Assembly (NCBI GenBank): GCA_049325595.1
Contig: JBMOLF010000010.1
Location: 32,001 to 96,000, forward strand
Length of the DNA: 64,000 nt
Reading direction: 5' to 3'
DNA from: Candidatus Babelota bacterium
GTDB lineage: Bacteria; Babelota; Babeliae; Babelales; Vermiphilaceae
Shown here: positions 2,559 to 24,182 of the stretch, piece by piece
Layout of the letters: the number at the start of each line of letters is the position of its first letter
Numbering within the stretch: position 1 is the first letter of the stretch
The notes under the pieces: generated by a model
What the model was told of the DNA's origin: nothing
Databases searched by the model: none
Seen by the model: the letters and a program-made list of their open reading frames with translations, nothing else
Position numbers and translations under genes: made by a program

Positions 2559-4352
2559 TTTTTTTATCTGCTCATCGGTAAGAGAATTGAGTAATTCTTT
2601 GAGAGTGCTTTTAATTTCGATATAAAGATTATCTAAATTTTGCTCATTTAATGTATTTTTAGATAATAAAAATTCTTTTGGAGCTTCGTTAAATTTGCGA
2701 TGGTAATTTTCTACTTCTTCTTTTAATAAATCATCTAATTCCTTCATGAATGGCATAAATATTTCACATTCGATGAGCTCGGTAATTTTTATGATCTTGG
2801 ACAGACGTTGATGCATTTTATAAATTTTTTTTAATTTTGAAAAAAATTTTAATGTGTAATCGACCTCAGTATTATAATCATCTAATTTTTCTGGAATAAT
2901 ATAGGTTTTGGCATATTTTTCAGATGACTTCTTTTTCTTAATATCCTGTAAACAGTTTTGTATTTGCGTAATTGAGTTGTTAATGCTTCCTAATATTTTT
3001 TGAAGGGGGGGAATATATTGTGGAATGTGTAAGCGAGTTGCTAAATCTTTCCCCTGGGTGATGCGTTCTTGTAATAAGCTTATTTCTTGAATTCGCATAG
3101 TCAAATATTGTTTTAGGAAATTATTTTGATAGGCAATAAGTTCAGGTCTTATAACCTGATTGAGTAAAGAAATTAATTCAATTTTTAAGTCGTTGGAAAT
3201 AGTTTGGGCGTCTTCTGGTTCGGTAATTGCGCTTACCCATCGTTGTTTTACGCATCTATATTTGCTATTAATTGTCTGATAAAGCAGTAAATGTATGTTA
3301 TTAAGGCTTGAACGAATCTCTTTTTTAGCAAGAAATGTTTTACAAGCATACTTTAAAGCTTTGTATATAGTTCCTATTTCTCTTGTAGGGACATATTCGG
3401 CAAAAATTGAAGAGAGATCTTCATTGTTTTGCTGAGAGTAAAAATTTTTTATAATTTTTTGCATAATCTGTTTTGTTTTAACATTAATTTTTTTGGATAA
3501 AGGATTTATTAAGCTACTGGTAATAAAAAAAAGAGCTCTAAAACTCATCTCTTTTAAAGAAGGTATTTTTTGTTGCTCAATTAAATTATTTTCATTAGGA
3601 AGTTCAACATCAGTGAATAATCCTTCAAAAAATTTTGGGTACTCTTTTAATTCACATGCTAGTGAAAGCGATGATTTGCCCAGTTTATTTTTGATTTTTA
3701 AATTAGCGCCTAAGAATAATAAATCTTTTACGAGATCAGGTTTAACTGAGTGTTGGCTAAGTGCTGTATGCAACGGTGTATCACCCTGTAAATTTGGTTT
3801 ATTTATTTGTCCCCCAAATTTACATAGAGATTCGAATATTTGAAAACGTAAATCTTCACGTAAAATTTGTTTTGGCATATCAGAAAAATCATTTTTTTCT
3901 GTATATAATTTTTTTTTGCGTACCATTAAATGAAAAGGTGTTTCTCCTGTATTGTCTTGATGGTCAGGAATAGCGCCATGTTCTAAGAGAAGCTTGACTC
4001 TAGCAAGATTTAATTCATCGACAGCATTATGCAACGGTGTTTTGCCCTGACGATTCATCCTATTTATAAATTCACTAAAAGGGACAGGGGCATCAGGTAA
4101 TTGTTTTATTAGTGTTATAAGCGTCTGAGCGACACTTACTTTTTTTGTAATATGTAAGCAATTATTTGCATAGCTATCGGTATAGAGTAAGTCTGCTCCA
4201 TTATCTAGCATTTTTTTTACCCGTTCCCAATCACCTTTTTCACAGGCATCAAAAAACAGTTCATTGCCACCCTGATCAAAAATATTTTTTTCCATACCAA
4301 AAAATGGAACGCTTAGGTGCAAAAGTAATATTGTTAAAATGTTTTTTTTCAT
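2547..4352 (-). CDS. Signal-peptide ankyrin-repeat protein with helical/coiled-coil C-terminus
   Basis: GKTPLHNAV, GETPFHL and GDTPLHTAL ankyrin motifs; N-terminus MKKNILTILLLHLSVPFFG|MEK. Confidence 0.9.
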   Translation of the reverse strand: MKKNILTILLLHLSVPFFGMEKNIFDQGGNELFFDACEKGDWERVKKMLDNGADLLYTDSYANNCLHITKKVSVAQTLITLIKQLPDAPVPFSEFINRMNRQGKTPLHNAVDELNLARVKLLLEHGAIPDHQDNTGETPFHLMVRKKKLYTEKNDFSDMPKQILREDLRFQIFESLCKFGGQINKPNLQGDTPLHTALSQHSVKPDLVKDLLFLGANLKIKNKLGKSSLSLACELKEYPKFFEGLFTDVELPNENNLIEQQKIPSLKEMSFRALFFITSSLINPLSKKINVKTKQIMQKIIKNFYSQQNNEDLSSIFAEYVPTREIGTIYKALKYACKTFLAKKEIRSSLNNIHLLLYQTINSKYRCVKQRWVSAITEPEDAQTISNDLKIELISLLNQVIRPELIAYQNNFLKQYLTMRIQEISLLQERITQGKDLATRLHIPQYIPPLQKILGSINNSITQIQNCLQDIKKKKSSEKYAKTYIIPEKLDDYNTEVDYTLKFFSKLKKIYKMHQRLSKIIKITELIECEIFMPFMKELDDLLKEEVENYHRKFNEAPKEFLLSKNTLNEQNLDNLYIEIKSTLKELLNSLTDEQIKKLQS

Positions 4353-5734
4353 TCTTTTTTGCCTATTTTACTAATTACAAAATGTTGCAAAAATCTATTC
4401 TTGCAATCTAAAACATTGCACGCATCGATGATCAAAGGACGCTTCATTATTTGGTGAAAGGGAGCATTTTCAAGTTGTTTAAATTCGCACCAATCGGTCA
4501 TAATTATTGCAGCATCACAATCAGATAACGCTGTTTCTAATGAATTACAATAACAAATATTCGGAAATAACTTTTTCATAGCATCATTTGCAATCGGATC
4601 ATACGCTTTTATATGAGCGCCATGTTTTTGAAGTAACTCTATAGTGGTAATAGCACAGGAATTTCGTATATCATTTGTACCGGCTTTGAATGAAAGGCCT
4701 AAAACAGCAACAGTTTTACCATCCAAAGTTACTAAATGTTCTAATAATTTTTTTACCGGAACCGTGCGTTGTTCTTGATTGGTTTGTAAACAAGCAGCAA
4801 GGGTGCGCAAAATAACACCGTGGTTTTTTGCAATCTGAAGTAACGCACTACAATCTTTAGGAAAACAAGATCCACCAAATCCCGGTCCATGCTTTAAAAA
4901 ATAAGAACCAATACGCTTATCAAGGCCCATGGCATGAGAAACTTGGCAGATATCTGCTCCTGTTTTTTCACATAAATTGGCAATTTCATTAATAAAGCTA
5001 ATTTTTACCGCTAAAAAAGAATTAGAAGCATATTTAATCGTTTCGGCAGTTGCCGGATCTACTAACACGCAGGGAATTTTTTCTTGAAGAAGTGGTTCAT
5101 ATAAGTTTTTAATTGTATGCGCAGCTTCAAATGAATGAGATCCAATTACAATACGATCCGGATTTAAAAAGTCATAAACTGCAGATCCTTCCCGTAAAAA
5201 TTCTGGATTCATTACCATGTCAAATAAATCGGGCGAAACATTATGTGAAAGTAATAGTTGTTCAGCATAATCTGTTGTGCCAATAGGTACGGTGCTTTTT
5301 ATGCAGATTATTGTTTTTTTGTACAACGACTTACCAATGGTAGCAAGTGCTGTATTCAAATAACCCATATAAGCAGTACCATCATCATTCATAGGGGTGT
5401 CAACGGCAATAAAAACTATGTCTGCTTGTTTGATGGCTTCTTCTGCTTGAGTGGTAAAGAATAATTTTTGATGCAAAAGCTCTTTACGTAAAAGATCGGT
5501 AAGTTGAGGCTCATAAATCGAAACAATTCCATTTTTTAGTTCATTTATTTTTTTTTCATCAATATCAACACATATTACCGAATAACCAAGATGTGCAAAG
5601 CAGGTACCCGTAACTAATCCCACATAACCCGTGCCAATAACGGCAATAGTTGGTATCTTAGTCTGAGAAAAAATACCATTATGAAATAGAATTGTGAAAA
5701 AAAATAATGAAATAATTTTCTTAATTTTGTTCAT
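4349..5734 (-). CDS. ugd: UDP-glucose/GDP-mannose 6-dehydrogenase family protein with signal-peptide-like extension
   Basis: IAVIGTGYVG, KSTVPIGT, NPEFLREG, GFGGSCFPKD, LGLSFK. Confidence 0.93.
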   Translation of the reverse strand: MNKIKKIISLFFFTILFHNGIFSQTKIPTIAVIGTGYVGLVTGTCFAHLGYSVICVDIDEKKINELKNGIVSIYEPQLTDLLRKELLHQKLFFTTQAEEAIKQADIVFIAVDTPMNDDGTAYMGYLNTALATIGKSLYKKTIICIKSTVPIGTTDYAEQLLLSHNVSPDLFDMVMNPEFLREGSAVYDFLNPDRIVIGSHSFEAAHTIKNLYEPLLQEKIPCVLVDPATAETIKYASNSFLAVKISFINEIANLCEKTGADICQVSHAMGLDKRIGSYFLKHGPGFGGSCFPKDCSALLQIAKNHGVILRTLAACLQTNQEQRTVPVKKLLEHLVTLDGKTVAVLGLSFKAGTNDIRNSCAITTIELLQKHGAHIKAYDPIANDAMKKLFPNICYCNSLETALSDCDAAIIMTDWCEFKQLENAPFHQIMKRPLIIDACNVLDCKNRFLQHFVISKIGKKE

Positions 5735-5884
5735 TGAGTCCCCCTTATCACTGGAGTATAGCTCAATGTTTTTATTTACTTCTAGAAATTGTTATTTTTG
5801 TTCAAATTTCGCTGGATTATTTTATTGAAAGCCTCTTCTTTTTTGTATTAAAGTAAGGCTAGTTGTTTATGATAACTGGAGTAA

Positions 5885-6724
5885 GTGAAAATGCGTTATA
5901 TGTGGTTATTAATAATCGGCATCCTACTTCATATAAGTAGTGTGGCTAAAGAATGTCTCACCTCATTTGTAATAGTAACTGCATCATATAATAACAAAGA
6001 TTGGTACCAAAAAAATTTACTTTCGCTTTTTGTACAAAAATATGAAAATTGGCGATTAATTTATGTTGATGATGCCTCTGATGACGGTACGGGAGCATTG
6101 GTAGAGCAATTTGTTCATGAACATGGCATGCAATCACGGGTGATGATTATAAGAAACAGTGCAAGAAGAGGGCACTTTGCTAATCAATATGATGCCATAC
6201 ACACCTGTGATCCTTCAGAAGTGGTGATAATTCTTGATGGTGATGATTGGCTAGCACATGATCAGGTATTAAATCGATTGCATGAAGTTTATCAAGATGA
6301 TGATGTGTGGCTTACGTATGGCCAATTTTGGTATTGGAAGAAAAATAAAAAAGGCTTTTGTAAACCTATTTCTCAGGAAAGATTAGAACAAGGAACAATA
6401 CGAACGCTTAAACCTTTTATGACATCTCATCTGCGAACATTTTATGCAGGATTGTATCAACAAATTCAAAAAGAACATCTTATGTATAATGATGCATTTT
6501 TTCCTATGTGTGTTGATGTTGCTACTATGATGCCTATGATAGAAATGGCTCGAACTCATGTGCGTTACTTAGATGAGATTTTGTATATTTACAATGATGC
6601 AAATCATCTTTCTTTTTTTCATGATCGCCGAAAACAACAAGAAGAACTAGAAGCATATATTAGAAAACAACCAACCTATCAGGCACTTAACCGAGTTCCA
6701 TGGGCACTAGAAAAGGATAACTAA
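5885..6724 (+). CDS. GT2 glycosyltransferase with signal peptide (alternative ATG at 5891)
   Basis: SYNN, YVDDASDDGT, LDGDDW (DxD) motifs. Confidence 0.9.
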   Translation: MKMRYMWLLIIGILLHISSVAKECLTSFVIVTASYNNKDWYQKNLLSLFVQKYENWRLIYVDDASDDGTGALVEQFVHEHGMQSRVMIIRNSARRGHFANQYDAIHTCDPSEVVIILDGDDWLAHDQVLNRLHEVYQDDDVWLTYGQFWYWKKNKKGFCKPISQERLEQGTIRTLKPFMTSHLRTFYAGLYQQIQKEHLMYNDAFFPMCVDVATMMPMIEMARTHVRYLDEILYIYNDANHLSFFHDRRKQQEELEAYIRKQPTYQALNRVPWALEKDN

Positions 6725-8184
6725 TGCAGGGGGTATTTAAACTTTTGTTACTTTTTTTTATGGCTTTTTTTATTAATACCGATGCTAAAGAAAAAAAATT
6801 AGTAATTATAATAACCTCTTTTAACAATGCCCAATGGTATCGTGCTAATTTAGACTCAGTTTTTGACCAAGAGTATCAAAATTATCGCGTTATTTACGTA
6901 GATGACTGTTCTGATGATGGAACAGCAGAATTGGTTGAAAAATATATTGCACAACGGGACCAACAACATCGTTGTATGCTTATTAAAAATAAAAAACGAG
7001 TGCGAGCATTAGCTAATTTATATAACGCAGTGCATCTTTGTGATGACAATGAAATAATTTTTAATTTTGATGGCGATGATTGGTTTGCGCATAATAAAGT
7101 TTTTGCCATGATTAATGAAATCTATGACGATCCCAATGTGTGGATTACCTATGGTCAATTTAAAAACTGGCCTACGGAACAAATGGGTTATTGTAAGCCA
7201 TTGCCTGATGAAGTGGTACAAAAACAATTGTATCGACAAAAATGGTGGGCGCCAGGACAACTACGCACGTTTTACGCATGGTTATTTAAAAAAGTGCAAT
7301 TAAAAGATTTGTTATTTGAAGGCCCTTATTTTAGAGGACAATTTTTTCCTGCAAATTCTGATCTTGCTATTTATTATCCCATGATGGAAATGGCAGGTCA
7401 TCGCCATAAATTTATTTCAGACGTAATATACATTCGCAATGTTCAAACGCCAATTAATGATTTTAAAGCCAATAAAGATGTTCAAGTAATGGGTAGTGCT
7501 TTAATACGTGCTAAAAAGAGATATCCATTATTGCCAAGTCACTATCAACCGGTAAAAAAAGATAATGAGAAAAAGGCTGATGTTGTGATTATTTCTTCTT
7601 GTGAGGAGAAAACAGATAGGCTATTAAAATCTATAGAAAACTTAATGATTGGTATTAATAGGGTATACATTTTAAGCAATAAGGCAGCGTTTTCATATGA
7701 AGATTGCAAGCATATGGTATCTTGCCCAATTATTGTTCAAGAATATCGTACTGTCCAAGAATTAAATGAGATAGTAAGTGATGCTTCAGATTACCTTTTG
7801 TTATTAAATGATTCGTTATTGGTAATTAGATATATTAATTTAGTTGAGTGTATTGAATGGCTTGAAAAGACCTATGCTTATGGTTTTTATTTAATGCAGG
7901 ATAAAAAATCTACTCTATCGCCATTTACCGGAAACTTTCAGCCAGTTCCCATTCTTAATAAAGTGCATAGCACTATCTATGCTTGGGCTTTTCATTACGC
8001 AGATTGCGGTGATTGGCGCAATCCTTTGCAGTGGGGTTGCTTGTACAAAAAGAGCGATCTTATTCAGGCAATAAATAGTTTGCTGTTTGTTACTGGTAAT
8101 GCCGACAAGCCAAGTGAATTAATTGATCTAGAAAATATTGGGTTATGTTATAAAAAGCCTAAATTATGTCTTATTGCAAGTTAA
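6724..8184 (+). CDS. GT2 glycosyltransferase with signal peptide and an extra C-terminal domain; paralog of the preceding gene
   Basis: YVDDCSDDGT, FDGDDW, WITYGQF and LRTFYA shared with 5885..6724; TAATG stop/start coupling. Confidence 0.9.
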   Translation: MQGVFKLLLLFFMAFFINTDAKEKKLVIIITSFNNAQWYRANLDSVFDQEYQNYRVIYVDDCSDDGTAELVEKYIAQRDQQHRCMLIKNKKRVRALANLYNAVHLCDDNEIIFNFDGDDWFAHNKVFAMINEIYDDPNVWITYGQFKNWPTEQMGYCKPLPDEVVQKQLYRQKWWAPGQLRTFYAWLFKKVQLKDLLFEGPYFRGQFFPANSDLAIYYPMMEMAGHRHKFISDVIYIRNVQTPINDFKANKDVQVMGSALIRAKKRYPLLPSHYQPVKKDNEKKADVVIISSCEEKTDRLLKSIENLMIGINRVYILSNKAAFSYEDCKHMVSCPIIVQEYRTVQELNEIVSDASDYLLLLNDSLLVIRYINLVECIEWLEKTYAYGFYLMQDKKSTLSPFTGNFQPVPILNKVHSTIYAWAFHYADCGDWRNPLQWGCLYKKSDLIQAINSLLFVTGNADKPSELIDLENIGLCYKKPKLCLIAS

Positions 8185-8293
8185 TTTAAAGATAGACATA
8201 TATTTTAAGCGTATTAATCTGTACTAAAATTGTTACAAAAAGGAAATCCAAAAACAGTTTTCCTTTTTTTGTTTTTTATTACAGAAAAAACTC

Positions 8294-8692
8294 ATGAAAT
8301 ATTTTTTATTTAGTATAATGCTCGTATTCACTGCAGATGCCATGCAGCCATATGAATTATCTTGTTTTAAGGTAACAATGCCTTCAGACCATATAATTAA
8401 AAGTAAGTTGTCAAAAGATGAAAATTTTAAAGATCTCACGATAAAAAGTGAATTGCATAAGCAATTGAGTGAAAAAATTTTAACCTATCGTGAACTTAAT
8501 AGCATAGTAGCCCGAGCCATAGAGCAATGGGCAGAATATCATCATAATGGAATGATACTACTTTTTGCCGATCAAACAGTTCCTTTGGTAGTTAAAACAA
8601 TATTTAAAAATAAGCCTACTATAATACAGAGTTATGAGCGTTTTTTAACTATTGAAAAAGAGTTGAAAGAAGTTAACCGATATTTAGTTTAA
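8294..8692 (+). CDS. Hypothetical exported protein
   Basis: Signal peptide MKYFLFSIMLVFTADA|MQ. Confidence 0.7.
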   Translation: MKYFLFSIMLVFTADAMQPYELSCFKVTMPSDHIIKSKLSKDENFKDLTIKSELHKQLSEKILTYRELNSIVARAIEQWAEYHHNGMILLFADQTVPLVVKTIFKNKPTIIQSYERFLTIEKELKEVNRYLV

Positions 8693-8796
8693 TTTATCTG
8701 ATGAAATAATAATGTTTGTAATTAAGTATCTATTTTCTTGATTGCAAATAACTGTACGTCGGATACTAAAATCAAAACAAGAAAGGAGTATCCGTT

Positions 8797-9204
8797 ATGA
8801 AAGCAGTTAAGGTTTTATTTTTCAGCATATTTTTTTTAGCAACTCAGGCTCATAATCATCAGCAAAAATATGCACAAAGAGTTAAGCAGTATTTTAACTC
8901 CTATCAAAAAGAATTTGCACAAGGTTTTGCTTTGGGTGCTGCTAGTGCAATAGGAATTGATTTTTTAAGAAATAAGGTATTACCAAACCTAGATGAATTA
9001 AAGCTCCATCAAAGAACAGGCATTTGCAGAGATCAACTTACCGGTCAATTAAAAGTAGCGTCAGCATTAGTAGGAGTTGCAGCACTTGAGAATAATCAAT
9101 TTGCTGATATTAATAACACAATAATACGCACCATTGGTGTACTTGTTGGCGCCAATTTTGCTGCATTCGCAACAAAATATGTTTCTGAATTATTAAAGAA
9201 ATAA
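8797..9204 (+). CDS. Hypothetical exported/membrane protein
   Basis: AAGGAG RBS; signal peptide; Gly/Ala-rich hydrophobic helices. Confidence 0.75.
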   Translation: MKAVKVLFFSIFFLATQAHNHQQKYAQRVKQYFNSYQKEFAQGFALGAASAIGIDFLRNKVLPNLDELKLHQRTGICRDQLTGQLKVASALVGVAALENNQFADINNTIIRTIGVLVGANFAAFATKYVSELLKK

Positions 9205-9220
9205 TAAGTAATTTTGCAGA

Positions 9221-9248
9221 GGCTCCTTTTATAGGAGCCCTTTTTTTT
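9221..9248 (+). terminator. Intrinsic terminator between convergent genes
   Basis: GGCTCCT-TTTAT-AGGAGCC followed by a T run. Confidence 0.7.
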
Positions 9249-10158
9249 ACTTTGATTGAGCTAATTTTTCTTCATGTTGTCTAATTAATTCAGCAATTTC
9301 GGGTGTACCGCCTTTTAAAGCATATTCATAGGCACCTGTTATTGATGCTCCATGCTCAAGTAAAAAATCAACCATTCCTATATTTTTCTGGTTAATGGCC
9401 ATTTCTAATGGAGTTTGGTTTAAGCCGCCCACTCCCGATTTTATATTAACATCTGCACCTTGTGATAATAAATATTCTAGCGCCTGATAATTTCCTACAG
9501 TAACTGCGATTTCTATCGGTGTTCGGTTACAATTATCTTTGTTATTAACATCAATGCCTTTTTTTATAATTTTTTTTATTAATAGAATGTTTGCGCTGGT
9601 AGCAATAGCGCTATTTAAAATATCGATGTCTGCATTTGCCCCTGATTCTAATAATTTTAATGCTAAGTTGTTATTGCGGAAATTTAGTGCCACTGTTAGG
9701 GGAGACATAGAATGGCTTACTTGATTTATATCAGCATTTTCAGCAATAAGTAGATCTACTAAGGGATAGTTTTCTTTCCAAATAGCTCTTACAAGCGGAG
9801 AGTTTTCCATCTTATCTTTTTTATTTACATTAGCTCCATATTGTAAAAGTAATTTGGCAATATCAATACTAGTTTTATCTTTATTGCTGGCAATTAAAGT
9901 AAGAGGAGTGTAATGCAAAGTTCCTTCTTTAATTTGCCAGGATAAATCTTCATCTGGTGAAGCGCCTGATTCTAAAGCAAATTTTACTTTTTTAAGATTA
10001 TTTTCTTGTAATCCTTCGAGCAACTCAATTTTAGGATCAAATCGTTGAATGATTTGTGTAGCAATAGTACGGCATTCTTCTTTTTGTGCAGCATCACAGC
10101 TAATGCCTGCTAAACAGCAAATAAAAATAAACGTTAATGACAATTTTCTTATTAACAT
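9247..10158 (-). CDS. Signal-peptide ankyrin-repeat protein (tandem paralog 3)
   Basis: YTPLTL, GANVN, RTPIEIAV, GADVN, QTPLEMA. Confidence 0.92.
   Translation of the reverse strand: MLIRKLSLTFIFICCLAGISCDAAQKEECRTIATQIIQRFDPKIELLEGLQENNLKKVKFALESGASPDEDLSWQIKEGTLHYTPLTLIASNKDKTSIDIAKLLLQYGANVNKKDKMENSPLVRAIWKENYPLVDLLIAENADINQVSHSMSPLTVALNFRNNNLALKLLESGANADIDILNSAIATSANILLIKKIIKKGIDVNNKDNCNRTPIEIAVTVGNYQALEYLLSQGADVNIKSGVGGLNQTPLEMAINQKNIGMVDFLLEHGASITGAYEYALKGGTPEIAELIRQHEEKLAQSK
9251..9300. repeat. 50-bp direct repeat, copy 1 (ankyrin C-terminus)
   Basis: 49 of 50 nt identical to 10182..10231. Confidence 0.9.
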
Positions 10159-10168
10159 GTTTTTCCTT

Positions 10169-10906
10169 TTATAAATCTATTTTTGATTGAGCTAATTTTT
10201 CTTCATGCTGTCTAATTAATTCAGCAATTTCTGAGGTACTATTTCGCAATGCATATTGATAAGCCCCTGTTGTGTGAACACCATGATCTAATAATAATTG
10301 TACAATCTCAGGATTCTTGCCAAGAATTGCTTTTTGTAAAGGACTAATATTTTGTGGACCAGCACGAAGATTTACATCGGCGCCTGCAGCTAATATTTTA
10401 GCGATAAGAGGTATGTTGCCACTATCAAGAGCTATATATAAAGGAGTTCTGTTAAAACCATCTTTTGTATTTACCTTTGCATTATGGGCAATAAAAAAAT
10501 CAACCAAGTCTGATTGATTGTTATATAAAGCTATATGGATTGGAATATCACCTTCACCATCCGGTTTGTTAACATCTGCGCCATACTGTACAAGTAACTG
10601 CGCCACGGGTAATGCATTTTTGTATGATATTGCTAAAGTGAGTGGCGTTCTATGGATTTGTTTGAATACAGAAGGAGCCAGTTGTAGAGTTGTCGTATAA
10701 TCATGATTTGCAGATGCGCCAAGCTTGAGAGCGTCTTCTATTTGTTCTAAGTTGCCTAATTGAATTCCTGCAAATAATTCCTGTATTGATTGGTGAATTA
10801 TTTGTTCTGCTATATCTCGCGCTTCTTGTTTTTGTGCAGCATTACCTGCATTAATGATTAATGTACTGTAGACAAGAGCATATAAAAGTAAATTTTTTAT
10901 TAACAT
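10169..10906 (-). CDS. Signal-peptide ankyrin-repeat protein (tandem paralog 2)
   Basis: RTPLTLAI, GADVN, RTPLYIAL; GGAGAGG RBS before ATG 10906. Confidence 0.92.
   Translation of the reverse strand: MLIKNLLLYALVYSTLIINAGNAAQKQEARDIAEQIIHQSIQELFAGIQLGNLEQIEDALKLGASANHDYTTTLQLAPSVFKQIHRTPLTLAISYKNALPVAQLLVQYGADVNKPDGEGDIPIHIALYNNQSDLVDFFIAHNAKVNTKDGFNRTPLYIALDSGNIPLIAKILAAGADVNLRAGPQNISPLQKAILGKNPEIVQLLLDHGVHTTGAYQYALRNSTSEIAELIRQHEEKLAQSKIDL
10182..10231. repeat. 50-bp direct repeat, copy 2
   Basis: 49 of 50 nt identical to 9251..9300. Confidence 0.9.
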
Positions 10907-10928
10907 TGTCCTCTCCATTTTATGATCT

Positions 10929-11651
10929 TTATTTTTGCTCTTTTAACGTTTCTTCATGTTTGCGAATTAGTTCGGCAATTTCTGGCGTGCAATATTGCAA
11001 TGCATAGTGATAAGCGCCAATTGTGTTAGCACCATACGTTAAGAAAAGCTTAACAATTTCAGTTTTTTTTCTAAAAATAGCTTCTTGTAAAGGAGTTTTT
11101 AAATGAGGTGCCATAAAAGCATTAGGGTTTGCTCCATGACTTAAAAGTTTTTCTATTATTTGTTTGTTGCCGACCTCTATTGCTATATGTAAGGGGTTTT
11201 GATAGTTCCGATCTTTTAAATTAATGTCTGCATTATTGGCAATAAACAAATCCACTAATTCTGGTCGATTTAAAAATATAGCTAAATGAAGAGGGAGGTT
11301 GCCTTGACCATCTTGTTTATTAACATTTGCATCATATTTGAGCAATAATGTGGCAATATTAAAAGCATCTTTAGATTGAATTGCCAGAGTAAGAGGAGTT
11401 TTATGAAATGTGGTTATGGTATTAGTGGAAGGAAGCTGCGCTTGCCATGTTACATCTTCATTTGGTGACGCGCCTAAATCAAGAGCGAGTCTTATTTTAT
11501 CTAAATTATTTTCTGTTATCCCATCAAATAATTCTTGTACTGCTTGTTGAATAACTTGTTGAGCAATATCTCGCGCTTCATGTTTTTGCAAAGCATGCAG
11601 ACCTGGTATGACAAGTAGCGCTAGGCTTAATAATTTAATCATAAATTTCAT
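10929..11651 (-). CDS. Signal-peptide ankyrin-repeat protein (tandem paralog 1)
   Basis: KTPLTLAI, GNLPLHLAI, QNPLHIAI; start placed at MKFMIK. Confidence 0.92.
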   Translation of the reverse strand: MKFMIKLLSLALLVIPGLHALQKHEARDIAQQVIQQAVQELFDGITENNLDKIRLALDLGASPNEDVTWQAQLPSTNTITTFHKTPLTLAIQSKDAFNIATLLLKYDANVNKQDGQGNLPLHLAIFLNRPELVDLFIANNADINLKDRNYQNPLHIAIEVGNKQIIEKLLSHGANPNAFMAPHLKTPLQEAIFRKKTEIVKLFLTYGANTIGAYHYALQYCTPEIAELIRKHEETLKEQK

Positions 11652-11773
11652 TCTTTTCCCATTAAAAATCAAAATTGTAATTAATTTTAATATAACAAAA
11701 AACATGGGTAAAAAGACATATTTACTATAAGAAAAAGTAGGAGATTTGGGTTAAAATAAATTTTTATTATCAG

Positions 11774-12187
11774 TTATCGGATATTTAGTCGATCGATGAT
11801 TATTTTTAAAGTTTTATGGTAATTATCAAAATGATCAACAAGGGTTTGAGCAAGTTTTTCATTGTAAGTATGAGATGTTAAATTTCTATCTTTTATCATT
11901 TGAGATAAGAGCTCAAATTCAGATTCGGTAATCGTGTTTGTTTGTAAAGCTACTCGTAATATTTGGCCAGAAGAAACAAAAGTAAATGGAATACCGTGAA
12001 TAGCTTCAATATAATCACGTAGAAATCTGCAAAAAACTATCACATTAAGTGCAAATTGTTTGATCATCGAATCACGATATAAGTCCTTTAATTCTCCAAA
12101 ATCTTGTTGCAAATAAAGATTTATTGAATTTGAAAATCTGGTAAGACATTTTTCAGCGATTAAATATTGTTGTTTTACACAATTCAT
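11774..12187 (-). CDS. HI0074-family HEPN-domain protein (nucleotidyltransferase substrate-binding/HepT-like)
   Basis: RDSMIKQF and DRNLTSHTYNE (Rx4H-x-Y); 137 aa, predicted helical. Confidence 0.85.
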   Translation of the reverse strand: MNCVKQQYLIAEKCLTRFSNSINLYLQQDFGELKDLYRDSMIKQFALNVIVFCRFLRDYIEAIHGIPFTFVSSGQILRVALQTNTITESEFELLSQMIKDRNLTSHTYNEKLAQTLVDHFDNYHKTLKIIIDRLNIR

Positions 12188-12333
12188 ACGATTAACAAAA
12201 GTATTACATTTTTTATCTTATAGCCTAATTTATTTAGTATTAGTTGCCAATTCAAAAAAAGCTGCTAGAGTGTTTGGCCGAAAAGGAATCAAAAATAACG
12301 TAGTGTCTTTAAAATAAAAAAAGAAGATTTGTA

Positions 12334-12921
12334 ATGAAAATTAATCACTTCCAACTAGTTATCTATTTTATCTGTTCTTTTTTTGCTACAAATGGGCAGC
12401 AAGATTCAAATCATTTTGTTTTTTGCGATTTAATAAAATCGCAGACATTATGTCCTAAGTCAGATTATGCGCAAGCAGTTAACTATTTGCCAATTTGTTG
12501 TGTTGATATTTTTGTATTTAACCAAAAAACACACCAATATTTTATGGTACTGCGCAAACAAAAACCAGCACAACATGAATGGTGGTATCCAGGTGGTAGA
12601 CTCTTTAAGGGCGAATCTTTTTTTGAATGTGCGATTCGTAAATGTCGTGATGAAGTTGGGTTGCACGTTAAGCCTCTTGCTGAGCTTGGTGTGTATTCAA
12701 CAATTTTTCCTGATTCTGAATGGAACTGCCAAACGCATACCGTTAATATAGCAGTATTAGCATTGTTAGAAGAAAACTCATTCATTCAATTAGACCACGA
12801 TCATGAGCAAGGACAGTGGGTTGATGTCAGTATTGTTCCCAAAAATCCTTATCTTAAAGCTTTGTATGACAAGGCAATTTCTTATTTAAATTCACATAAT
12901 CTTAATCAAGGAATCTTATGA
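12334..12921 (+). CDS. GDP-mannose mannosyl hydrolase-like Nudix protein with signal peptide
   Basis: WWYPGGRLFKGES...RKCRDEVGL variant Nudix box and THTV motif; clustered with gmd/fcl like gmm (wcaH). Confidence 0.8.
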   Translation: MKINHFQLVIYFICSFFATNGQQDSNHFVFCDLIKSQTLCPKSDYAQAVNYLPICCVDIFVFNQKTHQYFMVLRKQKPAQHEWWYPGGRLFKGESFFECAIRKCRDEVGLHVKPLAELGVYSTIFPDSEWNCQTHTVNIAVLALLEENSFIQLDHDHEQGQWVDVSIVPKNPYLKALYDKAISYLNSHNLNQGIL

Positions 12922-14024
12922 ATATAAAAAAAATTTATTTTGCATTATGCATAGTAGGTGTAAATGTATTGGCTTCTGAATATGAAACTGAAAAAGTAGC
13001 TCTTGTTTGGGGTATGGGCCAAGATGGTAAATATTTATCAAAACTATTATTAGATAAAGAATATAAAGTATATGGCATAGGCAAATCAGCTGATCAAAAA
13101 GATTTTAGACAAAATGTATATGATTTTCTTGGTATAGAAGAAGATTCAAGATGTTTTAAGCTATTTCAAGGAGATATTTCAGATTCTAACTGCGTTTTTA
13201 ATAAGTTGTCTAAAATTAGACCGACACAGATTTATAATTTAGCGGCACAAAGTAGTATCCCCGAATCTTTTAAAAATCCTGATCAAACTTATCAAACAAA
13301 TTTTGAAGGAACACTGAATATTTTAGAAACAATGCAAAGTTTGGATTTATGGCATATAAAATTTGTTCAGGCAGCTTCCATAGAAATTTTTACGGGTACT
13401 AAAGCTGATTGTTATGATGAAAATTCTTTGCTTTCTGCGTGTTCGCCCTATGGCACCTCAAAATTGCTAGCTTATAAAATGCTACAGCGTTACCGTAAGA
13501 GATATGGAACAAATGCGGGGAATGCGATTTTATGTAATCACGAATCACCTGAACGACCTGAAGGTTTTATTACTCAAAAAGTTGCAAAAGCAGTAGCAGA
13601 AATTTTTTTAGGAAAAAGAGATAATTTTTCTGTTGGCAATATTCATGCGCAACGTGATTGGGGACATGCTCGCGATTATGTAAAAGCCATGAAAAAAATG
13701 GCTGATCAAGCAAAAATGGACGATTATATAATAGCAACTGGCAAAGTTCATTCAGTTAAAGATTTAATAGAAAGCGCTTTTTCTCATACCGGACGTACTA
13801 TTGTATGGTCAGGAGAAGGCATAGATGAAAAAGGTTGTGATAGTAAAACAGGTCACGTATTAGTAACAATAAACCCAGAATTTTATAGACCAAATGAGGC
13901 ACAAGTAACTACCGGCAATACAAAAAAAATATACGAAAAGTTATATTGGCAACCAGAAACCACCTTTGATGAATTAGTAAAAGAAATGGTGGAAACACAA
14001 ATTAAAAAACTACAAACAAAATAA
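12918..14024 (+). CDS. Divergent GDP-mannose 4,6-dehydratase-like SDR with signal peptide
   Basis: [42 protein letters not shown]. Confidence 0.88.
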   Translation: MNIKKIYFALCIVGVNVLASEYETEKVALVWGMGQDGKYLSKLLLDKEYKVYGIGKSADQKDFRQNVYDFLGIEEDSRCFKLFQGDISDSNCVFNKLSKIRPTQIYNLAAQSSIPESFKNPDQTYQTNFEGTLNILETMQSLDLWHIKFVQAASIEIFTGTKADCYDENSLLSACSPYGTSKLLAYKMLQRYRKRYGTNAGNAILCNHESPERPEGFITQKVAKAVAEIFLGKRDNFSVGNIHAQRDWGHARDYVKAMKKMADQAKMDDYIIATGKVHSVKDLIESAFSHTGRTIVWSGEGIDEKGCDSKTGHVLVTINPEFYRPNEAQVTTGNTKKIYEKLYWQPETTFDELVKEMVETQIKKLQTK

Positions 14025-14036
14025 GGAGTAAACACG

Positions 14037-15053
14037 ATGTTAAAAAAAATAGTATTATCACTTTTATTAGTAACTATGGTAAATACGAATGCCAATGTGG
14101 CACCAATGCCTAAAGATGCTAAGATTTTTGTAGCAGGCCATCGTGGATTGGTAGGTTCGCATATTGTTGATGAGTTACATGCTCAAGGTTACACGAACAT
14201 TTTAACTAGAACCAAAGATGAACTTGATTTATGCAATGCACAAGCAGTAGATGAATTTTTTGAAAAAGAAAAACCGGAGTATGTGTTTTTAGCAGCAGCA
14301 AAAGTTGGTGGTATTTTGGCTAACAATACCTATCCAGCCGATTTTATTGCACAAAATCTTGCCATTGAATTAAATATAATTCAATCTTCTCATAAATACG
14401 GCGTAAAAAAACTTCTCTTCTTAGGTTCTTCATGCATTTATCCACGCATGTGTCCACAACCAATTAAAGAAGAATATTTGTTGACCAGTGAATTAGAGCC
14501 AACTAATGAGCCATATGCTATTGCTAAGATTGCTGGTATTAAATTATGCCAATCTTATAATCGCCAACATGGCACGAAATTTATTGCTTGCATGCCAACA
14601 AACTTATATGGTCCTAAAGACAACTTTAATTTACAAAATTCTCATGTATTACCGGCACTACTTTCCAAAATTCATACCGCAAAAGTGAATGGTGATAAAC
14701 AAGTTACCGTGTGGGGCACCGGTACACCGCGCCGCGAGTTTTTATACGTTGAAGACCTTGCCCAAGCATGTGTTTTCTTAATGAATAATTACGAAGGTAA
14801 TGAAGTGGTAAATGTAGGTACCGGCACCGATGTTACTATTGCAGAATTAGTTTCAATGATCGCCAAAGTTGTTGGCTTTGAAGGTGACTTAGTGTACGAC
14901 ACTACTAAGCCTGATGGTACGCCACGCAAATTATTAAATGTTGATAAATTAACTTCACTTGGCTGGAAAGCTAAAATATCGTTAGAAGATGGCATTAAAA
15001 AGACCTATGAATGGTATTTGCAAAATGTGGAAAAAGAAATGATCAAAAAATAA
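14037..15053 (+). CDS. fcl: GDP-L-fucose synthase with signal peptide
   Basis: [51 protein letters not shown]. Confidence 0.96.
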
Positions 15054-15063
15054 GAGGGAAGTA

Positions 15064-16167
15064 ATGAAGCACTTAATTATATGTTTATTATTGGGAGCCA
15101 GCGCTATAAGCGCTGCTCCCAAGGTTGCGCTTATTACGGGTGTGACGGGCCAAGATGGATCGTATCTTGCTGAGTTTTTATTAAAAAAGGGGTATATAGT
15201 ACACGGTATTAAACGTCGTGGGTCATTGATTAATAATACACAACGAGTTGATCATATTTATGAAGATCCACATTGTGCTAAACAATTTTTTCTACACTAT
15301 GGTGAAATGACTGATGCAGCTAATTTAGTGCGCATTATTCAAGAAGTGCAACCGGATGAAATTTACAATTTAGCTGCTCAAAGCCACGTGCAAGTTTCAT
15401 TTGAGGAGCCTATTTATACAGCACATGCTGATGGTGTTGGTGCGCTTAATATTTTAGAAGCTATTCGTATTTTGGGTATGACTAAAAAAGTGCGTTTTTA
15501 TCAAGCATCAACCAGCGAAATGTTTGGAAAAGTACAAGAAATACCACAAAAAGAAACCACACCGTTTTATCCTCGTTCTCCCTATGGTGTTTCTAAATTG
15601 TATGCGCATTGGATTACCAAAAATTTCCGTGAAGCCTATGGTATTTTTGCTGTCAGTGGTATTTTATTTAATCACGAATCACCACGACGCGGCGAAACAT
15701 TTGTAACCAGAAAAATTGCTCGGGCTGTTGCACGTATTGCAGCTGGATACCATGAAATTCTGTACCTTGGTAACCTAGATGCTTGTCGTGACTGGGGCCA
15801 TGCTCGCGATTACGTAGAGGCAATGTGGCTTATGTTGCAACAAGAAACACCAGAAGATTTTGTAATAGCGACAGGAGAAACTCATTCAGTTCGTGAATTT
15901 GTAGAACTCTCATTTAAAGAAGTTGGCATTGAAATTGAATGGACAGGTACTGGTCTTGATGAAAAAGGTATTGATAAAGCAACGGGTAAAGTATTAGTAA
16001 AAGTTGACCCGCGTTACTTTAGACCAACCGAAGTTGATTATTTGCTTGGTGATGCAACAAAAGCAAATAATATTCTAGGATGGAAGCCGCGCACTACCTT
16101 CTGTGAACTCGTTACCGAAATGGTACAAGCAGAAGTCCGTGCTTTAGATATCGATTTAAATTTTTAA
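15064..16167 (+). CDS. gmd: GDP-mannose 4,6-dehydratase with signal peptide
   Basis: [46 protein letters not shown]. Confidence 0.97.
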
Positions 16168-18582: not shown

Positions 18583-19356
18583 TCACATGTTACATGTCTT
18601 ATTCTGTTTGTTGAAAAAAAATTGACGCAAAGGAGAATGAACAAGTCTGAGTTTTACTAATGAGCTGAGCATGCGCAAACCACCTTTAAAAAGCTTTAAT
18701 TTACTATCAGCTTGATCATGCCAAACAGTAGGAATCTCTTTAATCTTTGCCTTTTGTTTTTTGCATAAATAAAGCAGTTCTACATCAAATGCCCATTGCG
18801 TAACCGTAAATTTATCGATGATAGCCTGAATAACGGGTCGTTTAAAAATTTTAGCTCCACATTGAAAATCTGCATACCGTATGCCAAATAACATCCATGC
18901 CAGATTTTCATAAACCAGCTTGCTTCCCATTCGCTTTATAAAAGGTCGTGCTGGGCTTACGTGCGCACCCTTCATATATCTACTTGCAATGATACCATCG
19001 CACGATGAAATCTGCTCAATGAGCTGAAAAAAATATTCAGGTCGGGTAGCCATATCAGCATCGACAAATCCAATAAGATCATTTGTCCCCTGCAAAGCAT
19101 GTGAAAATCCTTGCGCTATAGCAAACCCTTTGCCTGCTTGTTCATAATTAAGCACGACAATTTGTTGGTGCTTTTGAGCAAATTGATGTGCAACCTCGAT
19201 GGTTTTATCAGAACAACCATTTAACACAATTATAAATTCATAATCATGTATTACTTGTTGTTCTTTTTTTTCGTGAAAAAATTGACAATAATTATCAACT
19301 GTTTTACCAAGTCGACGTTCTTCATTATGGGCTGGGATCACAATACTAATTTTCAT
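18583..19356 (-). CDS. GT2 polyprenyl/dolichyl-phosphate glycosyltransferase-like protein
   Basis: VIPAHNEERR, GKGFA, FVDADMAT, DFQCGAKIF, WAFDVELL. Confidence 0.9.
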   Translation of the reverse strand: MKISIVIPAHNEERRLGKTVDNYCQFFHEKKEQQVIHDYEFIIVLNGCSDKTIEVAHQFAQKHQQIVVLNYEQAGKGFAIAQGFSHALQGTNDLIGFVDADMATRPEYFFQLIEQISSCDGIIASRYMKGAHVSPARPFIKRMGSKLVYENLAWMLFGIRYADFQCGAKIFKRPVIQAIIDKFTVTQWAFDVELLYLCKKQKAKIKEIPTVWHDQADSKLKLFKGGLRMLSSLVKLRLVHSPLRQFFFNKQNKTCNM

Positions 19357-23032: not shown

Positions 23033-23445
23033 GGTGTTGTCCTGTAAAGTTCTAGCTTTTCAAGAACATCACCAACGGTTAGTTTTTTTAGTGAGAATGC
23101 ATCTTTTTTAGTGCCATATTTACGCATCTCTTTAAAATCAGAAAGCACTTTTGCAACAACTGAATCGCTTGAAAAGCTCTCTTGTAATTCTTTATCAACA
23201 ATTTTATCTTTCATGTTGCTTAGCTTTTGCCATAAAATTTTTTTATCTTCATCTGATAAGTGGACAAAGCAGATGGTAGGATAACTATTTTCTTCTTTAA
23301 TACCTAATGAAAATTGGTAATCAATTTTTTTGCCGTTAAAAGGGTGAGCATACCGAATGTTTGGTCGCATTTCTTGGCAAACTTTGTCATAGCTATTAAT
23401 CATAAAAATTAGCAATAGCCCATTTAAGAAAATTGTTTTTTTCAT
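23029..23445 (-). CDS. Hypothetical exported protein
   Basis: Signal-like N-terminus; ATGA overlap with the upstream gene. Confidence 0.65.
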   Translation of the reverse strand: MKKTIFLNGLLLIFMINSYDKVCQEMRPNIRYAHPFNGKKIDYQFSLGIKEENSYPTICFVHLSDEDKKILWQKLSNMKDKIVDKELQESFSSDSVVAKVLSDFKEMRKYGTKKDAFSLKKLTVGDVLEKLELYRTTP

Positions 23446-24122
23446 TCATTAGCCCTTTTTTTTGCATATACATAGACGGTTGTTTTTTTATTCCATGTCA
23501 TAGGTAATTGATAGGTTTTGAACAGCGTTAAATAATTATTTTCAGGCATTTTGCGTAAGGTAATAACATATCGTAATGATTGTGTCTTTGATAACGTGTT
23601 TGAAATCTGTTGCATTAATTTATCAGAAAAACAGGTTGAGCATAAAAAGATTACAGTAGCATCGGAAAAGTTTGTTTTAGTAATATCTGCAACACGCAAT
23701 TCGACTCGATCTTTAAAATCAATACCATACATGTTTTTTAAATTAATTACTGCCTGTTGAGCTCGTTCGATACGGGTTTTTGATAATTCAACACCTTTGG
23801 CTTTTGCCGGTGTTGTTAAAGCTACTTGTAAACAGGTTTGCGCAAGCCCACAACCAAGATCATAAAAAACATCTAGGGCTGATAAAGTAAGATCAGATAA
23901 TAGTGTTTGCAGCGCTTCAAAGGTAATTTCTCCATATGTAGGGTCGCCGCCAGCAGTTCTTATAGAAGCTGATTCCTGCGGTGGAATAACATAGCCATTT
24001 ATATTTTTATAAACAGTATTTATGATTTGCTGAGCCTGATTAGGTTTTAGTGGTAAAGATAGAACTGTATAACTAAAGAAAGTTATTATCAATAATGGTA
24101 CTAGATATAACGAGTGCTTCAT
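23442..24122 (-). CDS. DOT1-like class I SAM methyltransferase with signal peptide
   Basis: TYGE, DVFYDLGCG, GVELS, ATVIFLCSTCF. Confidence 0.8.
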   Translation of the reverse strand: MKHSLYLVPLLIITFFSYTVLSLPLKPNQAQQIINTVYKNINGYVIPPQESASIRTAGGDPTYGEITFEALQTLLSDLTLSALDVFYDLGCGLAQTCLQVALTTPAKAKGVELSKTRIERAQQAVINLKNMYGIDFKDRVELRVADITKTNFSDATVIFLCSTCFSDKLMQQISNTLSKTQSLRYVITLRKMPENNYLTLFKTYQLPMTWNKKTTVYVYAKKRANE

Positions 24123-24182
24123 ACTACTCAATCCTTTTTACCATTTTTTCATAACTGGCAGATGTAATACAAGAACTTAAGC

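Follow-up and report, generated by a model that had tools for sequence, protein, structure and literature searches.

Signal-Peptide-Like Extensions on GDP-Fucose Pathway Enzymes and Glycosyltransferases of a Candidatus Babelota Bacterium Point to Sugar-Coating Chemistry Probably Outside Its Cytoplasm

Introduction

The Dependentiae (Candidatus Babelota) are a phylum with a very large secretome. In Chromulinavorax destructans, signal peptides are carried by 44% of the coding sequences and by 78% of the ankyrin proteins (PMC6561590), and in Babela massiliensis by 79 of 126 ankyrin proteins and by a family of AAA-ATPases (PMC4378268); the tagged Babela proteins were read as secreted into the amoeba cytoplasm, type II being the only secretion system found (Pagnier et al., PMC4378268). 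In Chlamydia trachomatis, glycogen enzymes are secreted to the inclusion lumen, where the pathway is fed with UDP-glucose imported from the host (Gehre et al. 2016, PMC4829429). The present work concerns a cluster of seven genes in a 64-kb window (the whole stretch of DNA that was analysed) from a Candidatus Babelota genome, coding for nucleotide-sugar enzymes and glycosyltransferases (GTs) that all begin with a signal-peptide-like extension. Proteins with such an N-terminus are called tagged below. The extensions suggest that this bacterium, small and of the amoeba-parasite type, probably carries out sugar-coating chemistry outside its own cytoplasm, on host supplies.

Glycosylation of bacterial proteins and surfaces is thought to need nucleotide sugars that occur only in the cytoplasm and, outside it, to use lipid-linked donors. 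In the enterobacterial colanic-acid/O-antigen block, gmd, fcl, gmm/wcaH, manC, and manB stand together, and their products are cytoplasmic. Giant viruses encode GDP-mannose dehydratase, GDP-fucose synthase, and UDP-sugar enzymes, and have glycosylated collagen-like fibrils. The eukaryotic Golgi relies on nucleotide-sugar transporters and on type II membrane GT6 and GT10 enzymes, whose catalytic domains are luminal.

Materials and Methods

The source genome (Candidatus Babelota/Dependentiae; G000) has a size of 1.29 Mb, a GC content of 34.5%, and a completeness of 94.96%, and the window sits on a 284-kb contig. It was compared with a same-genus relative (G001) and with a set of 40 related genomes, in which the frame upstream of each orthologue was inspected and orthologue starts were picked by rule. 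These genomes are kin, and counts of tagged orthologues or of concordant pairs are not counts of independent events. The outgroup consisted of 78 Gmd genes from other phyla.

Signal peptides were called with a crude home-made rule, at a strict and a lax level. For the Sec/signal peptidase I type, a basic n-region, an h-region of about 7-15 residues, and small residues at positions -3/-1 were looked for. Domains were assigned with Pfam and NCBIfam (curated cut-offs), and Gmd was also aligned to solved structures. ManC, GalU, and GlmU were searched for in G000 and G001 with PF00483. All statements on localisation are drawn from sequence.

Seven Sugar Enzymes with Signal-Like N-Termini

The seven genes are the following, with lengths in amino acids (aa) and positions in nucleotides (nt) of the window.

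4349..5734, minus strand: Ugd, UDP-glucose 6-dehydrogenase family, 461 aa; signal-peptide-like aa 1-23 (nt 5666-5734)
5885..6724, plus strand: GT2a, family-2 glycosyltransferase, 279 aa; signal-peptide-like aa 1-21 (nt 5885-5947)
6724..8184, plus strand: GT2b, GT2 domain plus C-terminal domain, 486 aa; signal-peptide-like aa 1-21 (nt 6724-6786)
12334..12921, plus strand: Nudix hydrolase, 195 aa; signal-peptide-like aa 1-21 (nt 12334-12396)
12918..14024, plus strand: GmdL, divergent Gmd paralogue, 368 aa; signal-peptide-like aa 1-19 (nt 12918-12974)
14037..15053, plus strand: Fcl, GDP-L-fucose synthase, 338 aa; signal-peptide-like aa 1-19 (nt 14037-14093)
15064..16167, plus strand: Gmd, GDP-mannose 4,6-dehydratase, 367 aa; signal-peptide-like aa 1-17 (nt 15064-15114)

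All seven proteins pass the strict rule, with about 17-23 extra residues directly ahead of an intact catalytic domain. The extensions contain one to three Lys/Arg, an uncharged hydrophobic core, and small residues at -3/-1, as the home-made rule expects of Sec/signal peptidase I signal peptides, and the Pfam catalytic domains start at residues 22-32 (residue 57 in the Nudix protein). Pfam, NCBIfam, and solved structures thus bear out, at these positions, the original prediction that each enzyme is extended ahead of its catalytic start. No twin arginine occurs among the seven N-termini, which therefore do not qualify as Tat (twin-arginine translocation) signals, and no lipobox Cys was seen, by reading, directly behind the hydrophobic core in any of them. 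The Ugd of G001 (…CNVGC, followed by T) is a possible exception with a lipoprotein signal.

In their signal features, the tagged enzymes equal a set of 16 bona fide periplasmic or outer-membrane proteins from G000. The median uncharged stretch is 16 residues in the tagged enzymes and 17 in this comparison set, against 21 in membrane anchors, and the predicted cleavage position is 19 in the tagged enzymes and 19.5 in the comparison set. As for controls, the strict rule is passed by 1.2% of 4061 internal-Met positions and by one of the 78 outgroup Gmd genes.

Several of the extended starts had also been said to be supported by ribosome-binding sites or translational coupling, and this was confirmed. 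Shine-Dalgarno-like motifs lie 5-14 nt ahead of the starts of Ugd, GT2a (GGAG), GT2b, GmdL, Fcl, and Gmd; the stop of GT2a overlaps the start of GT2b, the stop of the Nudix gene overlaps the start of GmdL (ATGA), and GmdL, Fcl, and Gmd are spaced by 10-12 nt. Genome-wide, such motifs precede 493 of 1287 predicted starts (38%), versus 5.5% of random positions. Ugd has AAGGGGGA ahead of M1, with no ATG, GTG, or TTG between M1 and the domain. Gmd has GAGGG ahead of M1, with no ATG or GTG before the fold and only a TTG within the hydrophobic core. In Fcl, AAGGAG precedes M1, and an ATG is kept at codon 24, the canonical start, without a Shine-Dalgarno motif. The extensions appear to be genuine, cleavable signal peptides of the Sec type, and to be translated.

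Behind the extensions, the enzymes belong to well-defined families. Gmd scores 600.4 bits on the equivalog TIGR01472 (cut-off 415), its residues 20-359 corresponding to model positions 1-340, and residue 20 aligns with residue 2-3 of solved Gmd structures. It is about 70% identical to E. coli Gmd (1DB3) across the fold, and alignment to 7KF3 and 1DB3 shows that GVTGQDG, QASTSE, and a further motif are conserved, which we take to be the Rossmann GxxGxxG, the catalytic Thr/Glu, and the Tyr-xxx-Lys. Fcl reaches 509.7 bits on the equivalog NF047922 (cut-off 500; residues 27-332 on model positions 2-306). GmdL remains under the TIGR01472 cut-off of 415, with 330.5 bits and an alignment from residue 26; it is 40% identical to Gmd and keeps the Tyr/Lys motif, its Rossmann motif being one residue shorter and QASTSE being replaced by QAASIE.

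Ugd contains three UDPG_MGDP_dh Pfam domains (N-terminal, central, and C-terminal), the first from aa 29, and exceeds the cut-off of the nucleotide-sugar dehydrogenase subfamily TIGR03026 (447.8 versus 189.8 bits, aligned from residue 29). It stays below the cut-offs of the UDP-glucose dehydrogenase equivalogs TuaD (488.8 versus 700) and AglM (398.7 versus 670), and UDP-glucose is, therefore, a putative substrate. PF00535 starts at aa 30 in GT2a and at aa 28 in GT2b (E-values of 6e-18 and 1.8e-19), and both proteins have the DGDD motif of nucleotide-sugar-dependent GT-A enzymes. They would be Leloir enzymes of the GT-A type, as DxD implies a nucleotide-sugar donor.

The Nudix protein had been called Gmm-like. 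Its family holds (PF00293 from aa 57, 53.6 bits), and so does its place beside Fcl and Gmd. The more specific assignment is not supported, as the similarity to the GDP-mannose mannosyl hydrolase model NF011963 (Gmm/NudD) is weak, at 43.1 bits under a cut-off of 146. A role in GDP-sugar metabolism is suggested by its kept position beside these two genes, also in G001, and by nothing else.

Conservation of the Extensions in Related Genomes

The extension is lineage-wide, as the comparison of orthologues proposed with the original prediction shows.

Gmd: 25 orthologous genes in 20 genomes; 16 signal-peptide-like (14 strict, 2 lax); 9 untagged, 1 of these borderline
Fcl: 20 orthologues; 13 signal-peptide-like (9 strict, 4 lax), of which 2 look doubtful by eye; 6 untagged; 1 broken by a stop
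Ugd: 16 orthologues; 10 signal-peptide-like (7 strict, 3 lax)

For Ugd, the ten same-family orthologues (46-67% identity) are all tagged, and the six distant ones (35-39%) are all untagged. The tag states of Gmd and Fcl agree in G000 and in 11 relatives (8 with both tagged, 3 with both untagged), and disagree in one relative, G024. Three genomes (G003, G013, and G017) each have one tagged and one untagged Gmd. Among nine ManC-like genes beside Gmd in relatives, judged by eye, five are tagged, two clearly untagged, and two ambiguous. The orthologue of GT2a in G001 is likewise tagged. The GT2b family counts 1547 database homologues at E<=1e-10, and an N-terminal hydrophobic segment was present in 20 of 22 sampled (of the others, one was N-terminally partial and one had no segment). 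The closest named homologue is from 'Candidatus Dependentiae bacterium Noda2021', and the best solved relatives are distant GT2 enzymes only.

Between G000 and G001, the signal regions are 14-41% identical and the mature parts 58-84%, and the signal regions remain basic and hydrophobic despite this divergence. High divergence of the signal region beside a conserved mature part is the usual behaviour of signal peptides. Across the relatives, what is kept of the tag on Gmd, Fcl, Ugd, and ManC is its character and not its sequence.

As an enzyme that has to work in the cytoplasm, GlmU served as a negative control. In 19 of 20 relatives, a stop lies just upstream of the canonical Met, and an open, signal-like extension was found in G000 and G001 only. 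The GlmU gene of G000 (C12:28747-30303, minus strand; L157:1-1557) has a very signal-peptide-like extension of 35 residues, followed by the conserved canonical Met; possible readings are an isoform particular to the genus, an anchor, or a frame left open by chance. GlmU was considered as a counter-example to the selectivity of the tag and set aside, its extension being confined to these two genomes and preceding a conserved canonical Met.

In a FastTree Gmd tree of 66 rows, good support was obtained for 9 of 63 inner branches; an origin of the tagged copies within the lineage would be compatible with it. The sole signal-like Gmd of the outgroup comes from a contig binned as Rhabdochlamydiaceae (region L035:7705-17090), where its neighbours are tagged genes of CAP59/GT2-like and FkbM-like type. 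This points to a like arrangement in a second intracellular lineage, to gene transfer between lineages, or to mis-binning of the contig. Two Fcl genes contain in-frame stops, namely G019:C5:14402-15367 (one TGA) and G039:C1:1082875-1083804 (one TGA and one TAG); they may be pseudogenes, in genomes with an untagged Gmd.

Substrate Supply and Export Machinery

No ManC-like gene was found in G000 or G001, where the PF00483 matches were GalU and GlmU only; many relatives have ManC-like genes of 350-395 aa beside Gmd. GDP-mannose is, therefore, without a known endogenous source in G000, which fits the use of host GDP-mannose. Neither a second nor an untagged copy of Gmd, Fcl, or Ugd was found in G000. 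GalU is present (329 bits on TIGR01099, cut-off 326.8) and untagged, as are a PGM/PMM-type mutase and a GlmM-like protein. UDP-glucose is therefore made in the bacterial cytoplasm, and the missing supply concerns GDP-mannose only. The expectation that absent precursor genes and absent signal-less copies would speak for host substrates was, thus, borne out for ManC and for Gmd, Fcl, and Ugd, and not for GalU and the mutase.

The Sec machinery of G000 comprises SecY, SecD, SecF, and signal peptidase I (S26), and no match to TatC was found in this genome. Type II secretion is represented by a secretin, T2SSE (two genes), and T2SSF (two genes), and the genome also encodes two nucleotide transporters (NTT).

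Depletion of Cys was tried as a marker of an oxidising destination and rejected, since the tagged forms show none. The medians for tagged versus untagged forms are 3 versus 3 in Gmd, 6 versus 3 in Fcl, and 8 versus 9 in Ugd, in small and related samples. The undepleted Cys content weakly favours a reducing destination.

Tagged Proteins Across the Genome

The strict rule is passed at the N-terminus by 458 of the 1290 open reading frames (ORFs) of G000 (35.5%) and by 25 of the 58 in the window, and the seven tagged genes are therefore part of a genome-wide pattern. The percentage is approximate, as the rule over-calls ORFs that are extended upstream. The tag is selective nonetheless: Ndk, LeuRS, UvrB, GalU, and GT4 are untagged in G000, and so are, in the window, the GT2 at 18583, FkbM, Tal, RecD2, S1, AtpH, and the small subunit of ribonucleotide reductase. 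The five internal controls named in the original prediction (GT2 18583, FkbM, GT4, Tal, and Ndk) are, thus, indeed signal-less.

A Pfam scan covered 398 of 400 strict-positive ORFs of at least 130 aa, and 131 of them matched a family at E<=1e-12. The tag occurs, as it should, on envelope proteins (OmpA, OmpH, SurA, ZnuA, solute-binding proteins, an amidase, a secretin, and TolC-like proteins), and also on repeat proteins (ankyrin, LRR, and WD40). The tag is also found on enzymes needing ATP, S-adenosylmethionine (SAM), or NADPH, i.e., seven AAA ATPases, a DOT1-like methyltransferase, a uridine-kinase-family protein, and thioredoxin-reductase-like proteins. The DOT1-like histone methyltransferase lies in the window (23442-24131, minus strand; PF08123, E = 8e-17) and is a plausible host-chromatin effector.

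On contig C1, an island of tagged proteins extends over about 50 kb (~9-56 kb; L121-L123). It holds seven collagen-triple-helix proteins and three DUF5122 beta-propeller proteins (a fourth DUF5122 is on C12), together with a tagged sugar group made of a GT2, a GT6, a GT10 (fucosyltransferase family), a second GT2, and an FkbM methyltransferase. It is likely that the island proteins receive or use the sugars which the window pathway makes. A further tagged sugar cluster (C9:73869-78084; L139:1-4216) encodes an RmlD-like reductase, a Methyltransf_24 protein, and an RmlB-like short-chain dehydrogenase/reductase, the last being dTDP-glucose-4,6-dehydratase-like with 328 bits, under the cut-off of 365.

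Signal-like N-termini were also seen on an ATP-dependent DNA ligase, which also has a Met at its canonical start, and on two MutS-like proteins (C10:266860-268704, C11:37187-38959, and C15:95834-97534); these could be host-directed DNA enzymes or mis-called starts. In AtpG (C10:175536-176510) and PolA (C7:57836-60658), the longest ORF adds a hydrophobic, signal-like extension, and the true starts are almost certainly downstream. Automated counts of the secretome in this AT-rich lineage should be read with such over-extension in mind.

Neighbouring Genes

The G001 cluster (L101:4714-12771) is compact, with Ugd, GT2a, GT2b, two ORFs, Nudix, Fcl, and Gmd. That of G000 is split by the genes listed here, and GmdL, which has no orthologue in the G001 cluster, is an extra insertion.

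8294-8692 and 8797-9204, plus strand: two small signal-peptide-tagged ORFs, no family match
9247..11705, minus strand: three signal-peptide-tagged ankyrin-repeat genes (Ank Pfam families), inserted relative to G001, whose cluster has none
11774..12187, minus strand: untagged nucleotidyltransferase substrate-binding-like protein (PF08780, E = 8e-18), within the inserted stretch, probably outside the pathway

The C-terminal domain of GT2b (about 220 aa) has no family match.

Proposed Mechanism and Rival Explanations

In the mechanism that we favour, signal peptides have been grafted onto an ordinary GDP-fucose block (Nudix, Fcl, and Gmd), onto Ugd, and onto Leloir-type GT2s. The enzymes would cross the inner membrane through SecYEG and be cut by signal peptidase I; that the tagged proteins leave the cytoplasm in this way is a claim in which we have good confidence. 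They would then pass out to the host side, most likely by a type II secretion-like machinery, as other tagged proteins of the lineage would (ankyrin, AAA-ATPase, and DOT1-like). In the host cytosol, GDP-mannose, UDP-glucose, NAD+, and NADPH would be available, so that host GDP-mannose could be converted to GDP-fucose and host UDP-glucose to UDP-glucuronic acid. Co-exported GT2, GT6, and GT10 transferases and FkbM methyltransferases would use these sugars, the likely targets being the parasite's own secreted collagen-like proteins or host proteins. We prefer the host cytosol, reached by a type II-like system and supplying the nucleotide sugars, as the final site, since co-tagged proteins need ATP, SAM, or NADPH, since some of them act on eukaryotic targets (DOT1-like, ankyrin), and since the tagged enzymes are not depleted in Cys; this preference is a tentative one, and the chances that it is right fall a little short of even.

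The original proposal of a pathway working outside the cytoplasm is upheld, at the level of sequence, in what concerns signal peptides, their lineage-wide and mostly concordant occurrence, the untagged paralogues of some genomes, and the lack of a ManC-like gene, and is weakened by the bacterium's own route to UDP-glucose. Several points weigh against extracytoplasmic sugar chemistry. For all seven proteins, export, cleavage, and location are deduced from their sequences. GalU is untagged, placing UDP-glucose synthesis in the cytoplasm, while Ugd is tagged. Sec exports unfolded chains, and Gmd would have to fold and bind NADP+ after export; type II secretion would have to select these enzymes. 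The rule has clear false positives (AtpG, PolA, DprA, a LOG-family protein, CTP synthase, and one Pyr_redox_2 protein), in which the longest ORF begins ahead of the true start. Gains and losses cannot be counted on the Gmd tree, given its poor resolution, and the relatives are kin. Finally, a Met at or near the canonical start, within 11 codons of the fold, is found in 11 of 14 tagged Fcl (G000 included), often exactly 5 codons ahead of the fold, where untagged Fcl starts. This retained ATG may be left over from the ancestral start, or may serve as a second site of initiation, and a cytoplasmic Fcl isoform is possible.

The retained Met is also what speaks for a dual or mainly cytoplasmic pathway, in which translation would also, or mostly, begin downstream (e.g., at Met24 of Fcl) and the tagged form would be of minor or regulatory importance. 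The layout recurs in GlmU of G000 and G001, where a signal-like extension likewise stands before a conserved canonical Met. We consider this improbable. Neither Gmd nor Ugd of the window has a downstream ATG or GTG before the fold, a near ATG is rare in the relatives (2 of 16 tagged Gmd and 1 of 10 tagged Ugd), the Shine-Dalgarno motif of Fcl precedes M1 and not M24, and a cytoplasmic Fcl would be left without substrate, lacking cytoplasmic Gmd and ManC. Slightly less improbable are uncleaved N-terminal anchors, tethering the enzymes to the cytoplasmic or periplasmic face of the inner membrane as a membrane-bound glycan assembly line. In some orthologues, such as the Gmd of G024 and of G021, the N-terminal segment is long (about 45 aa) and more like an anchor, GT2 enzymes are often membrane-active, and the home-made rule cannot surely separate signal peptides from short anchors. 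Nevertheless, the uncharged stretches are shorter than those of known G000 anchors, the small -3/-1 residues stand two to six residues ahead of the fold in most orthologues, the N-side Lys/Arg place the catalytic domain outside under the positive-inside rule, and a pathway facing the cytoplasm would still have no GDP-mannose source. An artefact, in which untranslated upstream sequence is open and hydrophobic by chance in an AT-rich genome, does occur in G000 under longest-ORF choice (AtpG, PolA, and others). For the seven enzymes, such a reading is close to refuted by the pass rate of seven in seven against the internal-Met controls, by Shine-Dalgarno motifs at extended starts and the lack of an alternative start in Gmd and Ugd, by the persistence of the feature in many genomes despite sequence turnover, and by the controls that lack it (GlmU in 19 of 20 relatives, and 77 of the 78 outgroup Gmd).

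The rival that deserves most attention, doubtful as we hold it, is a periplasmic, Golgi-like glycosylation, in which the Sec-exported enzymes would go no further than the periplasm or the cell surface. Outer-membrane pores would admit GDP-mannose, UDP-glucose, and NAD(P) of the host, the parasite lying in the host cytoplasm, and periplasmic Leloir transferases would decorate its own exported collagen-like and surface proteins before these are assembled or in the course of it. Whatever speaks for export speaks equally for this reading; likely acceptors exist in the parasite's own tagged collagen-repeat and DUF5122 proteins near the C1 GT cluster; modification after export is logical, because Sec-exported proteins cannot be glycosylated before it; and the tagged ManC of relatives suggests a self-contained compartment. 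On the other hand, we know of no nucleotide-sugar pool in any bacterial periplasm, NADPH and GDP-mannose are near or above the usual porin size limits, and Cys-rich Fcl and Ugd (medians 6 and 8) are disfavoured in an oxidising periplasm. Many co-tagged proteins (DOT1-like, ankyrin, and AAA) would only make sense inside the host (PMC4378268).

A broader idea leaves the choice between periplasm and host cytosol aside. Dependentiae, and at least one contig binned as Rhabdochlamydiaceae, might run a complete extracytoplasmic Leloir glycosylation factory, a bacterial counterpart of the Golgi lumen; we put this forward as a speculation that is rather less likely than the host-cytosol site. Sec-exported ManC, Gmd, Fcl, Ugd, RmlB-like, RmlD-like, GT2/GT6/GT10, and FkbM proteins would use host GDP-mannose, UDP-glucose, NAD(P)H, and SAM to give secreted collagen-like fibres a coat that is fucosylated, glucuronylated, and methylated. 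Where a tagged and an untagged paralogue occur as a pair, one cell would then run two separate nucleotide-sugar economies.

Significance and Comparison with Known Systems

If export is real, tagged nucleotide-sugar enzymes and soluble Leloir transferases would break the cytoplasm-only rule of bacterial glycosylation. They would also represent a new form of exploitation by an energy parasite, the activated sugars of the host being used directly rather than imported or made, and would explain part of the very large secretome of the phylum, for instance by a glycosylated collagen-like coat, as in giant viruses. For annotation, tagged genes of this kind should not be counted as a cytoplasmic GDP-fucose/O-antigen pathway in metabolic reconstructions. 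Cultivable Dependentiae–amoeba systems open the idea to direct test; strain Noda2021, which encodes at least the GT2b homologue, is grown in Vermamoeba vermiformis (PMC8812299).

The original prediction knew of no exported pathway of this kind. Its novelty stands for the synthesis enzymes: in the literature searched (main texts, with most subscription journals outside the search), nothing was found on exported or signal-tagged nucleotide-sugar synthesis enzymes. It does not extend to the setting, as the Dependentiae secretome and the Chlamydia precedent are already published. With the described secretome, G000 shares the lineage, the tagged share (35-48% by the home-made rule versus the published 44%), the tagged ankyrin and AAA proteins, and the type II secretion parts. 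It differs from what those two papers describe by a complete tagged sugar-nucleotide pathway with transferases. In term searches of the two papers, 'mannose' and 'fucose' occur in neither PMC4378268 nor PMC6561590, 'GDP' does not occur in PMC6561590, and 'glycosyl' appears once in the two papers, for a DNA glycosylase in PMC4378268.

Compared with the enterobacterial GDP-fucose block, the Nudix, Fcl, and Gmd families likewise stand side by side, whereas in G000 all members are tagged, manC was not found, manB lies outside the cluster, and a divergent Gmd is added. Giant viruses are similar in being protist parasites with their own GDP-fucose/UDP-sugar enzymes and transferases, which decorate the viral surface proteins from host precursors in the host cytoplasm, and collagen-like proteins occur in G000 too; unlike a cellular parasite, which would have to secrete them, viruses need no export step, and the likeness drawn here is one of function. 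As in the eukaryotic Golgi, GT2, GT6, and GT10 enzymes of G000 carry an N-terminal signal or anchor, with a catalytic domain presumably on the non-cytoplasmic side, whereas the synthesis enzymes, tagged in G000, are cytosolic in eukaryotes. Chlamydia also offers an intracellular bacterium that shifts a whole cytoplasm-type sugar pathway outside, fed by a host nucleotide sugar. It does so with type 3 secretion signals, for glycogen metabolism in a vacuole lumen, whereas the G000 locus combines Sec signals with nucleotide-sugar interconversion and decoration. Chlamydia would thus be the nearest functional precedent, the G000 locus probably working alike without being a member of the same system. 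What is known is a huge Sec secretome of the Dependentiae, including cytosol-type enzymes; what appears to be new is the presence of nucleotide-sugar synthesis enzymes among its tagged proteins.

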